A DNA stretch of 64,000 bases from positions 18,027 through 82,026 of the forward strand of contig JAUREJ010000002.1 in assembly GCA_030827475.1 (NCBI GenBank), in the 5' to 3' direction. A program made the position numbers and the translations under genes. This document shows, in pieces, positions 4,825 to 18,207 of this stretch. Position 1 is the first letter of the stretch. Every line of letters begins with the position of its first letter. This stretch comes from Poseidonia sp. Lineage in GTDB: Archaea; Thermoplasmatota; Poseidoniia; Poseidoniales; Poseidoniaceae. The notes under the pieces are model-generated. The model was not told the DNA's origin. It ran no database searches and saw nothing but the letters and a program-made list of their open reading frames with translations.

Positions 4825-6468
4825 TTACTCATCCTCAAGGGACTCGTAACTCTTGAAGAACTCGTCAATGTCGATGACGCCGTCTTCGTTCTCGTCGGCC
4901 TTGTGGAAAATGACCCGTGATTCGTCTCTGGTGAACGTGAAACCAAGGGCTTTGAGTGCGTTCTGGAACTCACGAAGCGTAAGGTGATTCTTGTCCCCGA
5001 AATCGGCAGCGTGAAACGCAGCAAGCCTTCGGTCGTGCTCTGTGGTGCTGGCGATCCCGAAGAGTTGCCGGAAGGTGGTGAAGGGCGTATCTTGGTGAGC
5101 GACGTAGTGCTTCCTACCGTAGAGCGCATAGGTGACGATGCCCGCTACCAGGGCGACGCCTCCGCCGATGTAGGCTTTTGAACCCATAAGTGAGATCAGG
5201 AAGGCCCCTGCAACGATTCCCCAAATGTTGAGGTACGGGTAGAGCGGGCCTTTGTAGGCCGGTTTCCAGTCGTGGACATGACTGGTTTGGCGCAAAACGA
5301 TGACACAGGAATTGATGAGCATGAAGATCATGATTTTGAATCCGGATGCGAGTTTCACCACGTCCTTTAGCGGCACGAAAACGATGGCAAGGCCCATGGC
5401 TAAGCCCGTGATAAGAATCGGAAAGTGAGGGGTTTCAAATCGAGCGTTCACTTCCTCCAACGGCTGTGGCAGGAGGTTGTCTCGTGACATGGCAAACAAG
5501 AATCTGGAAGAGGCGAGGATACCGGCCAAAGCCATGGAGATCATGGTCAACACCGAAATGATGGCGACGAGAACGCCAAACTCAGAGCCTGCGATGTGTT
5601 CTGCGAAGACCGAGATAGGATTTTCAATGACTTTGCCGTCTTTCATCCACCACTCGCCGGGAAGCACAGCCATCATCGCAAAAGCCAGCGCTGAGTAAAC
5701 CACCGTTGCGATGGCGAGGGACACCAAGATGCCTGCGGGCAGGTTCTTTTCGGGGTTTTTGACCTCGTCCCCGATGGCTGCCACTTTGGTGACCCCTGCA
5801 TAAGCAACGAAAACGAAAGCTGCGGTCTCTGCAAGCGTCCACATGTCGGTTGAGAAGGCCCCTTCGATGGGGACAGATGCGTCAAAATCAGCCGAAAACA
5901 ACGCCATGACGCACATGAGTACCAGCAAAGTAACCGTCACGAGCACGATGGGAGTTTGGATGGCTTTGACCTTGGACACGCCAAGAATGTTGACGAACGT
6001 GATGAGAACCAATGCCGATAACGAAAGGGTGTACATGCTCAGTTCGATGTCAAAATACGCCGTCACTACAGCGAAATAGGCCGAGAAACCGATGAGGGCG
6101 AAGGCGGATTTGAGCAGGAAAGACGACCAGAGGCCGAGCCCGCTGATGGTTCCAATCAAGGGGCCGTAGGTTCTTTCCAAGTACACGTACGACCCGCCGC
6201 TCGAGGGCATGCCCGAGGACAATTCAGATTTTGAAACGGCTCCCGGAAGCACCACGGAAGCGGCGAGCAAAAAGGCCAACCAGATTCCGGGTCCCATGAT
6301 TTCAGCGGCAAACGTCGGCGTGACAAAGATGCCGGGTAACATGGCCGAGAGGGAGATAATCACCACGCCTGCGAGTCCGATGGTCCGTGCGAACGTTGTT
6401 TTGAGTTCGGCACCTGCGGATTTGAGATCTCCTTTTGCGACGCTCTTGATGATGTTTTCAACGGCCAT
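4825..6468 (-). CDS. APC-family amino acid permease with C-terminal EF-hand pair
   Basis: About 12 TM helices; APC motifs GIFVTP, ELSSGMPSSGGSYVY, FVAYAG, EVKNPEKNLP, SRFLFAMSRD, TPH. Tail contains a canonical EF loop DENEDGVIDIDE (4861-4896). SD-like GGGGGTGA upstream. Confidence 0.9.
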   Translation of the reverse strand: MAVENIIKSVAKGDLKSAGAELKTTFARTIGLAGVVIISLSAMLPGIFVTPTFAAEIMGPGIWLAFLLAASVVLPGAVSKSELSSGMPSSGGSYVYLERTYGPLIGTISGLGLWSSFLLKSAFALIGFSAYFAVVTAYFDIELSMYTLSLSALVLITFVNILGVSKVKAIQTPIVLVTVTLLVLMCVMALFSADFDASVPIEGAFSTDMWTLAETAAFVFVAYAGVTKVAAIGDEVKNPEKNLPAGILVSLAIATVVYSALAFAMMAVLPGEWWMKDGKVIENPISVFAEHIAGSEFGVLVAIISVLTMISMALAGILASSRFLFAMSRDNLLPQPLEEVNARFETPHFPILITGLAMGLAIVFVPLKDVVKLASGFKIMIFMLINSCVIVLRQTSHVHDWKPAYKGPLYPYLNIWGIVAGAFLISLMGSKAYIGGGVALVAGIVTYALYGRKHYVAHQDTPFTTFRQLFGIASTTEHDRRLAAFHAADFGDKNHLTLREFQNALKALGFTFTRDESRVIFHKADENEDGVIDIDEFFKSYESLEDE

Positions 6469-6577: not shown

Positions 6578-7999
6578 TCATGCTGGCATGTGAACGATAA
6601 CCTTCATTTCCACTGCAATCGGCGTGGGCAACGCATCGATAGCGAGTGTCGTTCGGGTGGGACCCACCTTTCCGAGCGTTTCGGCCCATACTTCGTTGTA
6701 CCCTTGGAAGTCACGTTTCATGTCAACAAGGAACGTTGTGACGTCAACCACCTGCTCCATGGTCGCTCCGGCTTCCTCCACGATGCGTTTGACGTTCTCT
6801 ACAACGGCACGGGTCTGTGCCTTGATGTCGTAAGGCAGGGGTTCTCCGTTTTTGTCATGTATTGGCCCTCCGGGGATGGCGTTTGTTCCAGGTTGTCGCG
6901 GGCCAACGCCAGAGAGAAACAGCATGTCTCCAACTCGGCGAGCGTGAGGGTATGCTCCGACGGGTTTGGGAGCGGTGGTGGTGTTCACGGAACCCTTTGC
7001 TTCCGTTGGTTCCCACAAGTCCGGTCCGTTTGACGTTTCTTCGGTGACTTCGTCGTTTGTTTGACTCTGAACTTGGTCCTCTTCGACGATGTCCAGGACG
7101 TCCCGTTCGCCGTGGTAGTACTCAACGTCGTCTTCATCGTACTCCTTGTCGCCAACTCCGCTGGAGGCAGGGTCAAGATGAACGACGGCTCCACCTGCGC
7201 CGTGAATTGCTTCGTATGCCATCACACGACCCGTCAAGTCGTTCCGGTTTCCGTTCATGGCCGAAAGCCACCACATGGGCTTGAAAGCGACCACCTTCTG
7301 CACCCGAATTTGTTGGTGAATCGTTCGCGAGAGCTGGCCGACATCTTCAAGCCGCCCCTGTTTGAAGAATTCCAGAATTTTCCGGTTCCACTCGTCATCT
7401 TTGAGGGAGTGAATTTTGTCATCTTGAGGCGAGATGAAATCCGTAAACATCCGGTTGGAAAGCGACATGGCGGTGATGGCCACGGCGCGCCGTCCTTGGG
7501 CCTTGATGACGTCGAGACACGACTTTGCAAGAACCGTGGTTTCGCTTCGGTTGGCGTACATGTTTGAAGAAACGATGACAGCGGGGATGCTGTTGTCGGG
7601 GTTCAGCAGTGTCAACGCCACAACCGAACCGACATCGATGGGGAACCCTTTGTAGTTCACACAGCGGCTTTGTAACCCGCGTTTGCGATTCGCTTCGTCC
7701 CATGCATGGGCGAACTCAGCGTCAATGTTGAACGAGTAAGGTATGGAGCCCAAATCGTGAAAGTCATGGTCCACCATCACCCATTCCGGGTTCGGGTCGG
7801 ATTGAATCTGATGGCCGATGATGGACGGCCAGGTCGTCGAGTACACGATGAGCAAATCCGCTTCAAGATCTCGAATCGTTTGGGCCGCTTCATCAAATGC
7901 GTCCCGAAGCCTCTGCCAGCCGGGGTTTTGGTCCGGAGCGAGCACGGTGTGAGGGTGGACGGGCACGACAAACGAGGCCACGACTTCTCCAGAACTCAT
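6578..7999 (-). CDS. amnA-amnD: Fusion: 2-aminophenol 1,6-dioxygenase alpha subunit (LigB class III extradiol family) + acidic linker + RidA-family 2-aminomuconate deaminase
   Basis: The N-part matches the AmnA/CnbCa pattern (LIVYSTTW, VNYKGFPID.GS, SNMY, DDEWNRKILE, FKPMWW, GGAVV). The C-part matches the NbaF/AmnD-like RidA pattern (PKPVGAYPHARRVGDMLFLSGVGPRQ, FLVDMKRDF, PTRTT, IAVEMKV). Confidence 0.85.
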   Translation of the reverse strand: MSSGEVVASFVVPVHPHTVLAPDQNPGWQRLRDAFDEAAQTIRDLEADLLIVYSTTWPSIIGHQIQSDPNPEWVMVDHDFHDLGSIPYSFNIDAEFAHAWDEANRKRGLQSRCVNYKGFPIDVGSVVALTLLNPDNSIPAVIVSSNMYANRSETTVLAKSCLDVIKAQGRRAVAITAMSLSNRMFTDFISPQDDKIHSLKDDEWNRKILEFFKQGRLEDVGQLSRTIHQQIRVQKVVAFKPMWWLSAMNGNRNDLTGRVMAYEAIHGAGGAVVHLDPASSGVGDKEYDEDDVEYYHGERDVLDIVEEDQVQSQTNDEVTEETSNGPDLWEPTEAKGSVNTTTAPKPVGAYPHARRVGDMLFLSGVGPRQPGTNAIPGGPIHDKNGEPLPYDIKAQTRAVVENVKRIVEEAGATMEQVVDVTTFLVDMKRDFQGYNEVWAETLGKVGPTRTTLAIDALPTPIAVEMKVIVHMPA

Positions 8000-8904
8000 G
8001 CTTCGCTCACCTCATGGGCATGGCACGGCCATTCCACCACGGCGTTTCCCGTGCCGATGATGGTGCCGTACCCGTGAAGGATGGCGGGGTAATCCGGGAC
8101 GTCCAAGGTGGACAGAAGCCATGAGAGGCCCCCTCCGTCACTTTCCGCGATGGCCTGTTCGGTAAACTCCGGCATCTCATCGAGGATGCGTTGAGCCTGG
8201 CCGCTTCGCATGTAATCGATGATTCGCATGTCCCAAAGGTGCATGGCATGACTTGTGATGTGTTCTTTGCTCATGTCTTCGGGGACTTCGGATTCGGTGG
8301 TGAAATGCCGGTGGGAAAGGGAATTGCTGGCGAGGACGACCACGCGCTTTCCACTCGCTTCGATCGCCTTGCGCGTGACTTTGCCCAATTCGATCATGAT
8401 TTCCTGCATGACCTCGACCGAGTAGTACGCCGTTGAGCGGTTGCTTGAAATCACGACAAGGGGTTTGTCCCATTTGGGATTGAACAAATGGCCGGTGGTG
8501 ATGGTGCCGTAATCGACACGGAAGTCGGGGTTTTCCATCATCTTCACCGGCAATCCGGCGGCCTCTGCCTCGTCGTGAATCGCCTTTGCGAGTTCAACGT
8601 CCACGTTCATGTTGTAGTGGTAGCGAAACAGATTTGGGAAAATGGGGTCGACGGAGAGCCCTTCGAAGTGTTCCAAGCCCAAAAAATGGGTTCCGACATA
8701 CGTCTGCCAGTGCGGGGAGAGCAAAACGATGGCGTCGTAATCGATGTCGGCGAGTGAAGCACGAAGGCGTTCGTAGCCCCAGCGGAGTTGCTCCCATCCG
8801 CCTTCGGCTACAGGTTCGTTTTGGGGTGGGTTTTCCGCATACACCAGATGCGGTGGGTGAGGGGCGAGGCATCCTGCGACAATTTGCCCTTTGGCCATGC
8901 CCAT
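7996..8904 (-). CDS. amnB: 2-aminophenol 1,6-dioxygenase beta (catalytic) subunit
   Basis: Recognisable AmnB/CnbCb sequence: LAPHPPHLVYAENPPQNEP..GGWE.LRW.YER, SPHW, SVDPIFPN.FRY, DYGTITT.HL, SNSLSH.HF, PEDMSKE, YGTIIGTGNAVVEW. Fe ligands and catalytic His appear retained. ATGA overlap with the alpha gene at 7996-7999. Start may be the ATG two codons later. Confidence 0.9.
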   Translation of the reverse strand: MGMAKGQIVAGCLAPHPPHLVYAENPPQNEPVAEGGWEQLRWGYERLRASLADIDYDAIVLLSPHWQTYVGTHFLGLEHFEGLSVDPIFPNLFRYHYNMNVDVELAKAIHDEAEAAGLPVKMMENPDFRVDYGTITTGHLFNPKWDKPLVVISSNRSTAYYSVEVMQEIMIELGKVTRKAIEASGKRVVVLASNSLSHRHFTTESEVPEDMSKEHITSHAMHLWDMRIIDYMRSGQAQRILDEMPEFTEQAIAESDGGGLSWLLSTLDVPDYPAILHGYGTIIGTGNAVVEWPCHAHEVSEA

Positions 8905-11117: not shown

Positions 11118-12566
11118 TCAGGGTTGTTGAATACAGACGTTGGTCATCTCGGAGAAGAAGGCCATCGACCAGTCGCCCCCTTCCCGGCCGACGCCGGACT
11201 GCTTGACGCCACCAAACGGCGTACGCAGGTCTCGGTTCAGCCAAGTGTTTACCCAAACGATGCCCGTTTCCATCCGCTTTGCAAAAGCATGACCTCGCTC
11301 GATATCCGCAGTCCACACCGAGCCCGCCAGCCCGTATTCCGTGAGGTTCGCCATCTCCACCGCTTCGTCCTCGCTGGCGAACGTATGCAAGGTCACGACC
11401 GGGCCGAAAATCTCCTCGGTAGCCGTGCGGCAGGATGCAGGGAGGCCGGCAATCACGGTGGGGCGAAGGAAAGCACCTTCGGAGGAGACGCCGACGACAG
11501 GTGCCTGTTCGCTCAAACCTCCGGTGAGCACGGTGCCGCCTTCTTCGATACCGAGGCGAATGTAGGATTCCACCTTGGCCTTGTGGTCTTGGGAGATGAC
11601 CGTGCCCATTTGGGTCGCCTCGTCCCGGGGGTCTCCCAAGCGAAGTTCCTCCACTTTCTCCACGAATTTTGCGGCGAAGATGTCGTAAATCGTTTCATCC
11701 ACCAAAATGCGGGAGCCGCACAGACAGACCTGCCCTGAATTGGTGAAAGATGCCCGCACCAGGCTCTCCATGATGTCGTCGAGGGGCGCGTCATCAAGCA
11801 CCACCGTGGCGTTTTTGCCGCCCAATTCAAGAGAGAGTTTCTTGAACATGGGCGCAGCGGTCGCCGCAACCAAGCGTCCGGTTGCCGTTCCCCCGGTGAA
11901 CGAGATGCCGCGAATGTCGGGATGTTCGACGATGGCTTGGCCCACCTCCGGGCCGTACCCGTGAACAAGGTTGAACACGCCGGCGGGCAAGCCCAAGCCG
12001 TGAACGGTTTTGGCGAGGAAGTCCGCCGTGAGCGGGGTGAGCTCCGAGGGTTTGGCGACGATGGTGTTGCCCATCAACAAGGCCGGGGCAACTTTCCACG
12101 ACAGCAAATAGAGCGGAAGGTTCCAAGGCGTGATGAGCCCCACAACACCCACCGGTGAGCGATGGACGTGGTTCACGGCTCCGTGATCGGAAAACGTGGG
12201 GTCTTCGTGACCTTTGGCGTGGTGAGCGAAGAACCGAAAGTTAGCGACGGAGCGAGCAGCGTCCACTCGCCGAGCCAGTGAAATCGGTTTGCCGGTGTCG
12301 AGGCTTTCGAGTTGAGCGATGGTTTCCGCCTCCGCCTCCAAGGCGTCAGCAATGCGTTCCAGCCATGCGATGCGCTGCTCCATCGTCGTGCTGCCCCAAG
12401 CCGTCGCTGCTTCTTTGGCCGCCTCCGTGGCTCGTTTGACATCGATGGCCTCTGAACGGGCTACTGCGGTGATGACGGTGTTGGTCGCTGGGTTGATGGT
12501 GTCCAAGGTTTTGCCCGAAGCAGCCTCAACAAAGGCGCCGTTGATGTAGTTGCGGACAGGCTCCAT
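11118..12566 (-). CDS. amnC: 2-aminomuconate 6-semialdehyde dehydrogenase (ALDH8A1/AmnC-like)
   Basis: RSVANFRFFA, PWNLPLYLLSWK, KPSELTP, FTGGTATG, LELGGKN, GQVCLCGSR (catalytic Cys), EEIFGPV, RDLRTPFGG. These match the hydroxy/aminomuconate semialdehyde dehydrogenase subfamily. Confidence 0.85.
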   Translation of the reverse strand: MEPVRNYINGAFVEAASGKTLDTINPATNTVITAVARSEAIDVKRATEAAKEAATAWGSTTMEQRIAWLERIADALEAEAETIAQLESLDTGKPISLARRVDAARSVANFRFFAHHAKGHEDPTFSDHGAVNHVHRSPVGVVGLITPWNLPLYLLSWKVAPALLMGNTIVAKPSELTPLTADFLAKTVHGLGLPAGVFNLVHGYGPEVGQAIVEHPDIRGISFTGGTATGRLVAATAAPMFKKLSLELGGKNATVVLDDAPLDDIMESLVRASFTNSGQVCLCGSRILVDETIYDIFAAKFVEKVEELRLGDPRDEATQMGTVISQDHKAKVESYIRLGIEEGGTVLTGGLSEQAPVVGVSSEGAFLRPTVIAGLPASCRTATEEIFGPVVTLHTFASEDEAVEMANLTEYGLAGSVWTADIERGHAFAKRMETGIVWVNTWLNRDLRTPFGGVKQSGVGREGGDWSMAFFSEMTNVCIQQP

Positions 12567-13684
12567 CAGTTCACCTCTGGGTCAAAATGCCAGCGGTCTC
12601 TGTCGGGGTCCCATTCGTCCCACGTCGGCACGGTTTCCAAGATGTCAAGGTAGGCATCGGGCACGATGCCCGGCACGATGAAGGCTTTTTGCCGGTGCAA
12701 AGGGTAGGGGTTTCGCAGGTTGATGCCCAAGACTCCGAGCAGGGCTCGGGCGACGTACCATGTGGCTTGAGAGTTCCATCCGTGGGCGATCTTGACGACG
12801 ATACCCAGGCCTTTGGGGTAGTCGGGATGTTCAATGGCCATGCCGAGCAAGCCGTCCGCTCCTTCTTTGGCGATGACCCGACCTTCGCCGGCCTTGAGCA
12901 CCGTTGAATCGAGCCGGTTGAACCCTCCAACGAGGTCAGGATGGCGAACCATGGCCTCCCAAATCCAATCGTCGTCCTTGTCACGAACGAGCCCGGCATA
13001 GATTTGCGCAAGTTCGGAAACGGTGTTGGAAACGGTCGGCAAACCGCACCCGTCCTTGGCAATGCGCAACGGCTTCCAATCCTCGCCGAGGTAGGTTCGC
13101 AGTTGCTCCATGTAAGCGTGGAAGACCTCGTGGGTGGGCAGGGTGTAACCGGCGCGGTTCCAACCTTTCTTCCGACAGCCTCGGAGGATGGCGGCGTGCT
13201 CTCCCGAGCAGGTGTGGAACCAACGGCGAGGCCGCCGCACCTGTCGGCCAAACTGAATCAGCGGGACGTCGAGCGGCGTCAGCATCAAGGGCCATTCGGA
13301 TTCGTTCAAGAGCGACTGGGCGGCCGCAACGTGCTCCGTATCTCCGTTGTGCGACGCCACAGCGATGGCTTTCTGTTCCCACGAACAATCGGCGAGTTCT
13401 TCCGTGAAGGCCTTGAGCATGAAGGGCTTCATCATCGAACGACCGTAGCAGAGGACGTTACCTCCAAAGGAGTGGATCACCTCGTCACCGTGTGCCCAAG
13501 CCACGGCGCCGTGAATGGTGGTTTCCGATACGCCGTTTCGTCGGTAATCCACCAGCGGCTCCCAAGCCACTTCTCGCCCCGTGGGAATGCCCTCCACCTG
13601 CTCGCCAAGCGGTGAGGACGGATACATGGCCGAACCGGGTTTTCCGGGTTGAACGGCGGAGTAGGTGTCGTGATGGATGCCCAT
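12566..13684 (-). CDS. Class 3 (Rhizobium etli-type, asparaginase II family) asparaginase-like hydrolase, variant active site
   Basis: RSMMKPF, ASHNGD, TCSGEH (canonical NCSGKH), DGCGLP, AKEGADG (canonical AKLGADG), GIVVKI..G. TGA/ATG one-base overlap with the ALDH at 12566. SD GGGAGG upstream of the ATG at 13684. Confidence 0.85.
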   Translation of the reverse strand: MGIHHDTYSAVQPGKPGSAMYPSSPLGEQVEGIPTGREVAWEPLVDYRRNGVSETTIHGAVAWAHGDEVIHSFGGNVLCYGRSMMKPFMLKAFTEELADCSWEQKAIAVASHNGDTEHVAAAQSLLNESEWPLMLTPLDVPLIQFGRQVRRPRRWFHTCSGEHAAILRGCRKKGWNRAGYTLPTHEVFHAYMEQLRTYLGEDWKPLRIAKDGCGLPTVSNTVSELAQIYAGLVRDKDDDWIWEAMVRHPDLVGGFNRLDSTVLKAGEGRVIAKEGADGLLGMAIEHPDYPKGLGIVVKIAHGWNSQATWYVARALLGVLGINLRNPYPLHRQKAFIVPGIVPDAYLDILETVPTWDEWDPDRDRWHFDPEVN

Positions 13685-13685
13685 C

Positions 13686-14936
13686 TCACGACCTCCCCAA
13701 GAGGGCTTCAACGCGGGGAACGACGCGCTCCATGTAGGCCGTCATGTTTCGACACACGCGCTCGGAATCGTGGTTGAAGAAATCAAACCACGCCATGATG
13801 CGGTCGTCGGCGTGAAAGCGCTCAACCATCTGCCTCGCTACTTCCTCAACGTTGCCGATGAGGGCGTTGTCCGCAGCACGGTTCACTTTGTCGGGGTCGA
13901 TGGTGCCTTCAAGGGCGTTCCAGTACGCACTCAAGGCGCGCTGTGCCTCTTCCTGAGCAGCCTGAGATTGTTGCTCCGGTGTGAGCCCCGCCTCATCGTT
14001 GAGGAAAACAAAACTCGTTCGGGGCATGTCGGACCGTTTCCATTCACCGCCGTCGGCGTGGTACACTTCGGCCATGCGCTCGTGCGTGGCGTCGATGATT
14101 TCGGGCGACGTGATGGAGAGATTGAACACCTTGACGGGAAGAATGCTGTTGACGAAGGTCTGGGCCTTCGGGTCGTGCGTTCCTGCAACCAAGCCGAGCA
14201 GTTCTCTTCGGAAATGGCTTGGCACGATTTTCAGGTCTTCAAACACGTATCGTGAGGGGATGGCGATCGAGTTCGGGCGGTGTTCGAGGGCCTCGAACTC
14301 CACAGCAGCATCCTGCACGGCCAGCCAATCCTCGTCGCGTCGGAAGTTGCCCCGTGTGAGCACGGTGGACCGAATCATCTCGGAATTGATGACATCGCCC
14401 CTCAGCAAACGAAGGAAAATCTCGGCGGCTTCCATGAAAATTTGCCCTCGAAGCGCGGGCCAAGCCGCCTCTTCAACGGCGGTCCTCGGCACGACGCCAT
14501 AGGGGCGCGCCATGAACTCAAACCGGCCTGCGGAAAATCCGACGTGAAGCCGGCGATGTTCACTCGGCTCCAATCCGTGGAGGCTGAGAACGTTGGCGAT
14601 GCGTTCGGCTTGGGCGATCGGTCCACCCGATGCGAGGATGGAGATGACCGCACTGCCGATCTCGATGTTTCTCGTGCGGCGAAACGATTCCAAAGCGAGT
14701 TGGGGGAAATCCGTGCAGAGACCGACTTCACCTTTCCAATGCGGCACAACGGGTTGATGGTTGCTCTTTTGCGTCTCAGTTGAAAGGTGCGCTTGGGCGA
14801 TCCATCCCGTTTTGAACCCGAGTTGGTCTGCGCACACCAGTTGGTGGAAGTAGTTCCGTAGCATGGTGGCTTCGTCGGGAATGACCCCGTTTTCGTCAGG
14901 GGTCTGGGAAATGGAGAAGAAGATGTCATGTTCCAT
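13686..14936 (-). CDS. Luciferase-like (LLM class) flavin-dependent monooxygenase
   Basis: ADQLGFKTGWIAQAH, TRNIEIGSAV, AERIA, RLHVGFSAG..EF, and C-terminal ALIGNVEEVARQM...ERVVPRV; typical bacterial-luciferase TIM barrel. Stop lies 1 nt from the next start. Confidence 0.85.
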   Translation of the reverse strand: MEHDIFFSISQTPDENGVIPDEATMLRNYFHQLVCADQLGFKTGWIAQAHLSTETQKSNHQPVVPHWKGEVGLCTDFPQLALESFRRTRNIEIGSAVISILASGGPIAQAERIANVLSLHGLEPSEHRRLHVGFSAGRFEFMARPYGVVPRTAVEEAAWPALRGQIFMEAAEIFLRLLRGDVINSEMIRSTVLTRGNFRRDEDWLAVQDAAVEFEALEHRPNSIAIPSRYVFEDLKIVPSHFRRELLGLVAGTHDPKAQTFVNSILPVKVFNLSITSPEIIDATHERMAEVYHADGGEWKRSDMPRTSFVFLNDEAGLTPEQQSQAAQEEAQRALSAYWNALEGTIDPDKVNRAADNALIGNVEEVARQMVERFHADDRIMAWFDFFNHDSERVCRNMTAYMERVVPRVEALLGRS

Positions 14937-14989: not shown

Positions 14990-15835
14990 TCAGGCTGAGC
15001 CTTCATCGCCGGGCGTATTTCTCAGTTCGGTCAAATCATGAATCCGCTGGCGAAGCTGCGCAGGTGCCGGAATGTCAACGGCCAGGAATTCATGTAGCGA
15101 ATCGGACAGCACGAGCATGGCGGTTTCGTAGTCCTGTTGGATTTCAGCGATATCGGCTAGACCCCAACGCGCCACGAGTTGACCCGAAAGGCTGCCGAGG
15201 TCTTGGGCTCGCTCAAGGGATTGGTTGAACAGGTCTTGAGCGGCACCAAACTCCCCGATGGTCGCTTGACAGTGAGCCAGGTCGGCGATGGCTTCCATCT
15301 GCCCTTCTTCGTCCTTGAGTTTGGTCAGCAATTCAAGCCGTTCGGTCCCGATGGCGATGGCGGTGTCCTCGTCGTGCTGCCGTTTTGCGATGCTCATCAA
15401 CAAGGCCATTCCGTACGCCATGCCCTGAAAGTCTTCGACCGCCGTCCGCAAACGCAGGGCGCGCTGAGCCGTAGCCCTCGCTTCGTCGAGGTGACCTTCG
15501 GACATTTGGACCAGGGCGACGTAGTGTTGAACGGCAGCGGTGAGCGATTGTACTCCCTCCATGCCCTCGGTTTCTTCGGCGAGCGCCAGAAAACTATCCA
15601 CCTTGGCGTTCATCCGTTTCAAACCTTCAAACCGGGCCCAACCTCGCTCCTCATCGTTCGTTGCCACCGAGGTTGCGTGGTCAAGCAGGCGTTCAACCAA
15701 CTCGGCTTCGCCGACGTCCTCTGCAAGGGGCATCAACCGGAGGGCCAGGGAGGTGTTGATGTGGTCCATGGATCCACCGGAGGTCAACACCTCGAGGATT
15801 TGGCGAGCCCGTTCGGGCGAAACTTCACCGTTCAT
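14990..15835 (-). CDS. TPR-like alpha-helical repeat protein
   Basis: Repeated helix pairs (A..HY..LV....GHLDEA...AQRAL; ADLAHCQA..GEFGAAQDLFNQSLE; WGLADIAE.QQDYETA). SD GAGGTGA; 9 nt downstream of the SDR stop. Confidence 0.75.
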   Translation of the reverse strand: MNGEVSPERARQILEVLTSGGSMDHINTSLALRLMPLAEDVGEAELVERLLDHATSVATNDEERGWARFEGLKRMNAKVDSFLALAEETEGMEGVQSLTAAVQHYVALVQMSEGHLDEARATAQRALRLRTAVEDFQGMAYGMALLMSIAKRQHDEDTAIAIGTERLELLTKLKDEEGQMEAIADLAHCQATIGEFGAAQDLFNQSLERAQDLGSLSGQLVARWGLADIAEIQQDYETAMLVLSDSLHEFLAVDIPAPAQLRQRIHDLTELRNTPGDEGSA

Positions 15836-15844
15836 GCGTTCACC

Positions 15845-16660
15845 TCAAATCGAGCGTAGTCGGCCGCCGTCAACGGCGAGGCTCACGCCACGTATACCGC
15901 CAGAGGCGGGCAGGCATAGGAAAGTGATGGCGCTGGCGGTTTCGAGCGGGTCAATGAGACGACCGATGGGGACTTGGTCCAGCCAACCTTTGCGAACATC
16001 GGTTGCGGATTTCCCCGTTCGCTCTTGGATCGATGCGGAAAGGTTGCCCAAGCGTTCGGTATCGGTAAAGCCCGGCAAGACGTTGTTGATCGTCACGCAG
16101 GGCGGCAATTCGTTGGACAAGGATTTCGCCCAGGACGCCATGGCTCCTCGCAACGTGTTGGAAAGGCCGATGTTCGGTATGGGCTCTTTCACGGAGGTCG
16201 AAATGATTTGGACGATGCGTCCGTATCCTTCGGCTTCCATACCGGGAACTGCGGCCTTCACGAGGGTGTGAGCGGCGTGGAGGTGGCGCTTGAAAGGGGC
16301 CTCAAAGTCGTTGACCTCGTTGCCCAAGAGCGGTCCACCCGGAGGGCCACCTGCGTTGTTGATGAGCACGTGAACCGGTCCGAGAACTTCCGTGGCCGAG
16401 GCAAAGGCGGGTGCGATGCTTTCGGTGTCTTCCAAATCGAGCATCAGGGCTTGATGCGTCCCGTCACCGAGGGTGGAGAGCGTTGCGCACAGTTCGGTAA
16501 GGGCCGCCCCGTTTCGTGCGCAAACGGTGACGTTGGCGCCCGCTTTTGCCAACATTTTGGCCGTCGCTTCACCGATGCCCTTGCTCGCACCGCAGACGAA
16601 GGCGTGTTTGCCTTTGAGCGCTGACGAAGCGTAGGGGAAGTCGTTGCCGAGCAGGTCCAT
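15845..16660 (-). CDS. Atypical SDR oxidoreductase (BKR-like subgroup; the type I recall adjacent to kynurenine-pathway genes)
   Basis: VCGASKGIG Rossmann motif, LINNAGGPPGG, ISTSVKEPI, SNTLR in place of YxxxK, NNVLPG.T.T.RL, DGG. Confidence 0.9.
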   Translation of the reverse strand: MDLLGNDFPYASSALKGKHAFVCGASKGIGEATAKMLAKAGANVTVCARNGAALTELCATLSTLGDGTHQALMLDLEDTESIAPAFASATEVLGPVHVLINNAGGPPGGPLLGNEVNDFEAPFKRHLHAAHTLVKAAVPGMEAEGYGRIVQIISTSVKEPIPNIGLSNTLRGAMASWAKSLSNELPPCVTINNVLPGFTDTERLGNLSASIQERTGKSATDVRKGWLDQVPIGRLIDPLETASAITFLCLPASGGIRGVSLAVDGGRLRSI

Positions 16661-16697: not shown

Positions 16698-17444
16698 TTA
16701 CAACCAATCGAGCACGGTGTTGAGTTGAACCAACCAATCGTCAGAGGCGACGTCGATGATGTCGTAATGGTCACCGGGCAGCCAAAGCTTCTGGACGTCG
16801 GCACCCTTGGCCTTCATGACCCTCGCATAGGTTTCCGATTGCTCAAGGGGAACGTCGACGTCGTGCTCGCCGTGGAAGAGCAGCACGCTGGTTTGCGGCG
16901 GGTGGTCCACCGGGTTGAGTTGGCGCCAGAGGGTTTCGTTCTCTTCAGGCGAACAACCGATCCACCTTCGGACGGCATCACCATCGTCGGACAGGCGAGC
17001 ACGGTCGGCACCGATGAGGTCCGTCAAGGGTGCTTGAGCAATCGCCAACCAGGGCCGGCGCTCGGCTTTCGCACTCATCAAGAGCGCCAGTTGGCCACCG
17101 GCGGAATGCCCCATGACCATCGAGCGGGTCATGTCGATGCCCGGGAGCAACGCCAACTGTCCCCATGCCCGCAACACGTCGGAGAGGGTGTCCATCCAAA
17201 CCCCTTCTTCGCCTTCCTCCCATCGCTTGAATTCGATGTTCCAAGCGGCGACACCCGCTTCGGCGAGGTCTTCTGCGATGGGTTGCATCAACTCAAGGGT
17301 GTACTTCGTTTTCCAGAAGCCACCGTGAATGAGCATGATGCATGGGATGCCTTCGTCCTTTTGAAACGGCGACGGGTCATCGGGCATGTGGAGGTCAGCG
17401 AACTGCCACGCTTCTGCACCCCACTGCATCCGGTCAACGGCCAT
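16698..17444 (-). CDS. Alpha/beta hydrolase, HGGxW (HSL/arylformamidase-like) family
   Basis: IHGGFW oxyanion motif, GHSAGG nucleophile elbow, D.DVP acid, GDH His. Confidence 0.85.
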   Translation of the reverse strand: MAVDRMQWGAEAWQFADLHMPDDPSPFQKDEGIPCIMLIHGGFWKTKYTLELMQPIAEDLAEAGVAAWNIEFKRWEEGEEGVWMDTLSDVLRAWGQLALLPGIDMTRSMVMGHSAGGQLALLMSAKAERRPWLAIAQAPLTDLIGADRARLSDDGDAVRRWIGCSPEENETLWRQLNPVDHPPQTSVLLFHGEHDVDVPLEQSETYARVMKAKGADVQKLWLPGDHYDIIDVASDDWLVQLNTVLDWL

Positions 17445-17475: not shown

Positions 17476-18207
17476 TTGTGCCGCCTCATGGGAAAGGGCT
17501 TACAAACCCCAAGGCGTAGTGACATTGTGCGTCGTTTTGCGTGGTTGGCTTTTCTCCTTGTTGGCCTGGCCCCCACCGCTTCCATTCTTGCGTCGTTTGG
17601 TACCGGCGAGGGGTTGTTGGGGCAGTTGGTTTGGCTTCTGTCCAAGGCTTGGATGCTTGGGTTGCCGTTGTGGTGGCATCTCAAGGTGGATCGGAAACCA
17701 TGGTCGTGGTCTCCGGTGCGAAGCGGTGGCTACGCCGCTGCGACGGGTCTTGGCCTTGTTTTTTCTGTCGTCATGTTACTGGCGTGGTTTTTCTTCGGCG
17801 AATCACGGGTTGACCGTCAAACATTCCGAGCAACCCTCGAACCCTTTGGACTGACCAACGTCAACACCTACCTCGCCGCTGCGGTGTTCTGGACGGTTGG
17901 AAATTCGGTTTTGGAGGAGTATGTTTTTCGTTGGTTCCTCGTTGAGAAAGGCGAGGTGGTGTTTGGGCCCGGCTGGCCAACCATCTTTGCCTCGGCTTTC
18001 GTTTTCGTGCTCCATCACTTCTTTGCCTTGTGGTTCCTTGGTTTCTCCCAGTTGGCCATCCTCTTCGCCTGCATCGGGTTATTCGTCGGCGGAGCTGCTT
18101 TCAGTTGGCTTTACGTTCGCTATCGGAGTATTTGGATTCCTTACATCACCCACGCGATGTGCGATGTGGTGGTCTTTGGCGTGGGTTATGCTCTGCTCTT
18201 TGGTTGA
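17476..18207 (+). CDS. CPBP (CAAX/Abi) family intramembrane metalloprotease
   Basis: EEYVFR, FVLHH and HAMCD motifs in a multi-TM protein. The true start is probably slightly downstream. Confidence 0.85.
   Translation: MCRLMGKGLQTPRRSDIVRRFAWLAFLLVGLAPTASILASFGTGEGLLGQLVWLLSKAWMLGLPLWWHLKVDRKPWSWSPVRSGGYAAATGLGLVFSVVMLLAWFFFGESRVDRQTFRATLEPFGLTNVNTYLAAAVFWTVGNSVLEEYVFRWFLVEKGEVVFGPGWPTIFASAFVFVLHHFFALWFLGFSQLAILFACIGLFVGGAAFSWLYVRYRSIWIPYITHAMCDVVVFGVGYALLFG

Follow-up and report, generated by a model that had tools for sequence, protein, structure and literature searches.

What completes tryptophan degradation in an archaeon that carries a candidate 2-aminomuconate deaminase and none of the enzymes of the 4-oxalocrotonate decarboxylase route? 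The question is raised by a 64,000-nucleotide stretch of contig JAUREJ010000002.1 (forward strand, positions 18,027 to 82,026; GenBank assembly GCA_030827475.1) from Poseidonia sp., referred to below as the window, in which the gene for an atypical short-chain dehydrogenase/reductase (SDR) of 271 amino acids lies on the minus strand at positions 15845 to 16660. An original prediction, made from the sequence of the window, had assigned this SDR to the reduction of 2-aminomuconate or 4-oxalocrotonate to 2-oxoadipate; the observation behind it was confirmed, and the assignment is partly supported by the analysis reported here. We propose, with a probability of about 0.6, that the protein is an NADPH-dependent ene-reductase that converts 4-oxalocrotonate (2-oxohex-3-enedioate) to 2-oxoadipate, for which we infer both substrate and regiochemistry. 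That it has some role just downstream of 2-aminomuconate semialdehyde dehydrogenase (AMSDH) is highly probable.

The archaeal SDR lacks the catalytic tyrosine

The SDR open reading frame begins with ATG, and homologs align with it across residues 1 to 271; the in-frame GTG at 16804, where there is overlap with the upstream gene, is an unlikely start. Its closest relatives are genes of Poseidonia and other Poseidoniales (Marine Group II archaea). The protein matches Pfam adh_short_C2 above the cut-off (E 2.6e-36), and AlphaFold predicts a Rossmann fold for it with high confidence (pLDDT 96; Z of ∼35 to SDR structures). It has the GxxxGxG and NNAG motifs of the superfamily (GASKGIG, residues 24 to 30; NNAG, 101 to 104) as well as ISTS (153 to 156). 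Alignment confirmed that the YxxxK motif is replaced by SNTLR (residues 167 to 171; 16148 to 16162, minus strand), with S167 and R171 at the positions of the classical Tyr and Lys. S154 precedes S167 by 13 residues, which we take to be the Ser-to-Tyr spacing of classical SDRs. The stretch from GASKGIG through R49, an invariant residue after strand 2 (16514 to 16591, minus strand), suggests a preference for NADP(H), with which close relatives in the PDB were solved.

Models of FabG, the classical SDR ketoreductase, score the protein far below their cut-offs and YxxxK is absent, so it does not belong to that family. The top NCBIfam model, PRK08339 (NF006212), gave 156.5 bits against a curated cut-off of 339, short of equivalog membership, and an ESM Atlas search returned generic SDR names alone. 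With S-N-x-x-R in place of YxxxK and nearest solved sequences of the same type, the protein falls into the BKR-like atypical SDRs (PRK08339-like; Burkholderia 5va8, 5vps, and 5idx, Thermotoga 1o5i, and 2z1n). These closest solved sequences (E 3e-37; ∼34% identity) share the SNxxR motif and a GGPP loop with the archaeal protein, but none has H126, and T155, G165, and W177 are replaced in most of them; all four residues prove to be distinctive in the tree described below. We know of no function for any of them.

A kynurenine-linked clade of SDRs

Bacterial homologs were sampled from Planctomycetota, Gammaproteobacteria, Bacteroidota, Gemmatimonadota, and a Myxococcota-like group, giving 133 neighbourhoods of ∼18 kb. 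A quick maximum-likelihood tree (IQ-TREE; AerF and YwfH, discussed below, lie outside its taxon set) separated a clade of 97 bacterial proteins and the archaeal SDR (98 rows; SH-aLRT 98) from a sister group of 36. Tryptophan or kynurenine genes lie within ∼8.5 kb of 65 of the 97 bacterial clade members versus 0 of the 36 sister proteins. The statement in the original prediction that SDRs of this kind adjoin HAAO, aldehyde dehydrogenase (ALDH), and RidA genes in bacterial kynurenine clusters thus stands as regards linkage, and the homologs are indeed tied to kynurenine and amn genes. Its use of SNTLR to recognize the kynurenine-linked type had to be abandoned, because S167, N168, and R171 are invariant in the unlinked sister group too, as are S154 and R203. 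The clade is marked instead by H126, T155, G165, T169, A175, W177, and R267, which are 98 to 100% conserved and all present in the archaeal SDR. The nearest tree rows of the archaeal SDR are planctomycete proteins, and its sister (support 88) is the one whose locus has this cluster too; the tree suggests gene transfer in one direction or the other.

Co-occurrence points to a probable role in the lower pathway

Clade SDRs accompany two upper routes. The route through KynU, KMO, HAAO, and ACMSD is found at 40 loci, a route with a luciferase-like monooxygenase (LLM) and an asparaginase II-family hydrolase at 9, and both together at none. Because the clade is kept with two upper routes that do not overlap, the job of the SDR most likely lies in the lower part that they share. 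The common partners there are AMSDH (42 loci) and RidA (33 loci, all 33 with AMSDH as well), and AMSDH is the most frequent direct neighbour of the SDR (33 loci).

The association extends to whole genomes. Among 251 Bacteroidota, a clade SDR is present in 35 of the 36 genomes with an AMSDH ortholog and in 2 of the 19 that have HAAO and no AMSDH, genomes that presumably use the pathway for NAD. In 300 Gammaproteobacteria, leaving out the unpublished genome G294, all six SDR-positive genomes have a matching ACMSD. Many clade members without physical linkage (most of those tested) still have AMSDH elsewhere in the genome.

The 4-oxalocrotonate decarboxylase DmpH (TIGR03218) was detected in none of 68 SDR-positive genomes. 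Conversely, four gammaproteobacterial genomes with a divergent type of ACMSD have DmpH and no clade SDR. Three Bacteroidota genomes (G612, G670, and G639) have an AMSDH-type or weaker ALDH match, no clade SDR, and DmpH/DmpE-like genes below the TIGR03218 cut-off, which in two of the three adjoin HAAO or ALDH. Glutaryl-CoA dehydrogenase (GCDH) is encoded in 63 of 74 genomes searched, 73 of which are SDR positive; in six it lies within ∼13 kb of the SDR gene, and one Bacteroidota locus reads, on a single strand, SDR-ALDH-RidA-KynU-KMO-(one gene)-GCDH.

The source genome has no decarboxylase route

The source genome is 87% complete (1.8 Mb), and pathway searches covered all of it. The original prediction had noted that nothing in the window continues the pathway after the 2-aminomuconate deaminase AmnD, and this holds genome-wide: we found no 4-oxalocrotonate tautomerase (PF01361), no DmpG aldolase, and no hydratase-type match. 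The sole PF01557 (FAA-hydrolase) protein is YcgM/FAHD-like rather than DmpH, and TIGR03218 has no match in 81 Poseidoniales genomes, of which 53 reach a completeness of 90% or more. A full dmp/amn lower route, which would have spoken against the proposal, is therefore missing. The amn, nba, and Burkholderia tryptophan clusters resemble the window in having AMSDH and a RidA-type 2-aminomuconate deaminase, and the window also has an AmnBA-like dioxygenase, but those clusters use the DmpH-type lower route, whereas the source genome has the SDR in place of the tautomerase, decarboxylase, and aldolase. TDO is located elsewhere in the source genome; tblastn found no KynU, KMO, HAAO, or ACMSD in it.

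The original prediction had also called for a search for the two enzymes that follow 2-oxoadipate. GCDH is present (contig C4; E 4e-106 to human GCDH), and an acyl-CoA dehydrogenase on contig C69 that had been considered for this role was rejected. The GCDH gene (L237:2561-3628; G000:C4) contains a 98-N gap and encodes 355 amino acids compared with ∼394 in relatives, which suggests an artefact of assembly or masking. The other enzyme, 2-oxoadipate dehydrogenase, is taken up below.

Relatives of the clade point to ene-reduction

A profile of the clade ranked AerF from Microcystis aeruginosa (6jh7; E 1e-63) and YwfH/BacG from Bacillus subtilis (3u49; E 8e-54) ahead of FabG (1e-46), and in the structure search both fall within the leading group (Z of 35.2 to 35.5; root mean square deviation of 1.4 to 1.6 Å). 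These two, the nearest solved relatives that we know to have been characterized, have the SDR fold and were solved with NADPH (6jh7/6jha/6jhb and 3u49/3u4c), and AerF, like the archaeal protein, has Ser at the Tyr position. The archaeal SDR thus shares with this type the missing catalytic Tyr, an NADP(H)-type site, and a close profile and structure match. AerF is described as an NADPH-dependent C=C reductase. We take YwfH to be one also, acting by conjugate addition of hydride to a dienyl 2-oxo acid, and we take the substrates of both enzymes to be 2-oxo acids. They differ from the archaeal SDR in that they are biosynthetic enzymes (for aeruginosin and bacilysin, respectively) with cyclic substrates, whereas the proposed role is catabolic with an acyclic dicarboxylate, and AerF has Asn where the archaeal protein has R171.

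In the scheme that we favor, AMSDH would make 2-aminomuconate, and a RidA/AmnD-type domain would deaminate it to 2-oxohex-3-enedioate. Because this compound is an α,β-unsaturated 2-oxo acid whose conjugate reduction gives 2-oxoadipate, the SDR would be expected to place the hydride of NADPH on C4. The enol product would then ketonise to 2-oxoadipate, possibly with the help of H126, and R171 and R203 could hold the carboxylates of the substrate. Conversion of 2-oxoadipate to glutaryl-CoA would lead to GCDH. The SDR would thereby take over after the deaminase in prokaryotes that have no 4-oxalocrotonate decarboxylase route.

Earlier work bears on this step from the eukaryotic side. An "oxalocrotonate reductase" that converts oxalocrotonate to 2-oxoadipate is still drawn in pathway maps (PMC12899273), and our search of the accessible literature, outside which most subscription papers lie, yielded no gene, SDR or other, with this role. 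The original prediction had invoked the animal route, an analogy now outdated: according to a June 2026 preprint (bioRxiv 10.64898/2026.06.05.730449), the human enzyme is ASPDH, an NAD(P)H-dependent 2-aminomuconate reductase that delivers hydride to C2 and yields L-2-aminohex-3-enedioate. Like the proposed SDR, ASPDH is an NAD(P)H-dependent reductase at the end of the kynurenine pathway; it belongs, however, to the unrelated aspartate dehydrogenase family, from which the archaeal protein is excluded by Pfam, profile, and fold. According to the same preprint, in which SDRs go unmentioned, the deaminase used by fungi is of the bacterial type. The legend of Fig. 5 in PMC7842363 indicates a syntenic SDR in some Aspergillus 3-hydroxyanthranilate clusters.

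Weighing the alternatives

Linkage, co-occurrence with AMSDH, and the lack of overlap with DmpH favor reduction of oxalocrotonate to 2-oxoadipate; several observations weigh against it. No 2-oxoadipate dehydrogenase of the SucA/DHTKD1 type was found in the source genome. An 867-amino-acid fused E1 alpha-beta protein (L043:11044-13647) was considered for this family and rejected. Locus L244:5133-8038 contains a gene for a KorA-type 2-oxoacid:ferredoxin oxidoreductase and, after it, a beta-like open reading frame. KorA-type and E1 alpha/beta enzymes are the sole candidates in the source genome that could oxidize 2-oxoadipate. GCDH is a common enzyme with a second role in lysine metabolism. The SDR is only 27 to 28% identical to AerF and YwfH, and ketoreductases tie with them in the structure search (sorbose reductase, Z 35.8), so that Z-scores do not separate ene- from keto-reductases. 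The association of SDR with AMSDH among Bacteroidota has a nominal Fisher P of 4e-11, a value inflated by kinship. Nine Bacteroidota, some in one contig, have a clade SDR and no AMSDH, and in four of these (L176, L179, L186, and L187) KynU or HAAO adjoins the SDR; three Gemmatimonadota (L119, L206, and L207) have it beside KynU, KynB, or TDO with no AMSDH ortholog. These loci could be remnants, or could indicate that the SDR acts upstream. Finally, G342 (L226) and G675 (L241) carry full KMO-KynU-ACMSD-HAAO-RidA-ALDH clusters with neither a clade SDR nor DmpH, for which missing sequence and a third lower route are both possible explanations.

The loci without AMSDH are what one would expect if the SDR acted upstream, as an ene-reductase that detoxifies an enone derived from kynurenine (deaminated kynurenine or 3-hydroxykynurenine) independently of ring cleavage. 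The same chemistry would apply, but the SDR is missing from 17 of the 19 HAAO-positive, AMSDH-negative Bacteroidota, and its failure to co-occur with DmpH makes sense only for a role in the lower route; we give this explanation a slim chance. Within the lower route, linkage and co-occurrence fit equally well with a reduction that precedes deamination and acts on 2-aminomuconate or its imine tautomer. This would yield an enamine, which RidA would convert to 2-oxoadipate, or 2-aminohex-3-enedioate as with human ASPDH. RidA proteins hydrolyse enamines and imines generally, and animals do possess an NAD(P)H-dependent 2-aminomuconate reductase. Against this order of events, the RidA in the 33 loci that pair it with AMSDH resembles 2-aminomuconate deaminase (AMD), and the characterized AMDs act rapidly on 2-aminomuconate itself, releasing 2-oxohex-3-enedioate (bioRxiv 10.64898/2026.06.05.730449). 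Moreover, eukaryotes have AMD or the reductase but not both (same preprint), whereas the clade SDR occurs alongside a RidA that is AMD-like; a reductase kept with the deaminase is thus more likely to act after it. The 2-oxo acid substrates that we ascribe to AerF and YwfH also argue for the later step, and prior reduction of the amino compound seems unlikely.

The protein could also be a carbonyl or dienol reductase of the same segment, producing 2-hydroxyhex-3-enedioate or 2-hydroxyadipate, or could act on the semialdehyde. Its SDR fold and the equally good matches to ketoreductases are compatible with this, as is the want of a dedicated 2-oxoadipate dehydrogenase. The catalytic Tyr of classical carbonyl reduction is missing, however, and no gene for disposal of a hydroxy acid recurs in the linked clusters; we regard carbonyl reduction as rather improbable. 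The 65 linked neighbourhoods contain no recurrent extra enzyme of any other kind either, such as a 2-oxoadipate dehydrogenase. It is very unlikely that the SDR is a general-purpose or noncatalytic NADP-binding protein merely carried with the cluster. About one-third of the clade is not physically linked, and members of the widespread subfamily often bear the annotation FabG, but linkage persists in five phyla, in many different gene orders, and with both upper routes, the clade residues are almost fully conserved, and most tested unlinked members retain AMSDH in their genomes. Ene-reduction of 4-oxalocrotonate accordingly is the reading that we retain.

Gene neighbourhood of the SDR

All genes described here lie on the minus strand unless stated otherwise. 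An α/β hydrolase (BD-FAE/S9; 16698 to 17444), identified by Pfam and synteny, begins the series 37 nucleotides upstream of the SDR gene; it is possibly a kynurenine formamidase, since planctomycete clusters have KynB in its place. A TPR protein gene (14990 to 15835) follows the SDR gene after 9 nucleotides and is a lineage-specific insert, missing from several Poseidoniales and planctomycete loci in which the SDR gene abuts that of LLM. LLM (13686 to 14936; NCBIfam and synteny) and the asparaginase II-family hydrolase (12566 to 13684; Pfam and synteny) come next, and then the AMSDH-like ALDH (11118 to 12566), whose best NCBIfam model is TIGR03216 (2-aminomuconate/2-hydroxymuconate semialdehyde dehydrogenase-like), below its cut-off. 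A LON-domain gene, panB, and one opposite-strand open reading frame separate it from the genes for an AmnB-like LigB-family ring-opening dioxygenase subunit (7996 to 8904) and an AmnA-like LigB-family subunit fused to a RidA/AmnD-like deaminase domain (6578 to 7999), the presumed supplier of the SDR substrate. Directly downstream of the fusion gene, and conserved in Poseidoniales loci, is an APC amino acid permease with a C-terminal EF-hand pair (4825 to 6468), possibly an uptake system. A scan for promoters and terminators gave counts at chance level.

Poseidoniales keep this gene order, with AMSDH within a few kilobases of the SDR in all 31 loci of sufficient length. A compact planctomycete cluster (L036:9102-17383) reads TDO-SDR-LLM-AsnII-ALDH-LigB-LigA-RidA-KynB, and the module can be tied to tryptophan because this cluster includes TDO and KynB. 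Together, the LLM and asparaginase II-like pair (window, 11118 to 14936) and the AmnBA-like dioxygenase (6578 to 8904) make up this second upper route from tryptophan, which planctomycetes have in full, with TDO and KynB, and which never shares a locus with KynU, KMO, HAAO, and ACMSD. Two loci titled Verrucomicrobiales (L014) and Salinimicrobium (L022) show Poseidoniales-type synteny, with SDRs 68 to 86% identical, and are probably mislabelled or misbinned.

Significance

The identification of ASPDH settles the animal branch differently, and the SDR is a candidate for the next step in organisms that have a 2-aminomuconate deaminase and no decarboxylase. Many aerobic Bacteroidota, planctomycetes, and marine archaea encode it; to the bacterial cases the window adds an archaeal member of the clade and the context of a second upper route. 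It is probable that this one clade constitutes a prokaryotic oxalocrotonate reductase that completes the conversion of tryptophan to 2-oxoadipate and glutaryl-CoA behind two independent upper pathways in Bacteroidota, Planctomycetota, Gammaproteobacteria, and Marine Group II. If so, a Tyr-less SDR clade often annotated as FabG would gain a function, and the textbook decarboxylase route would have a reductive alternative.
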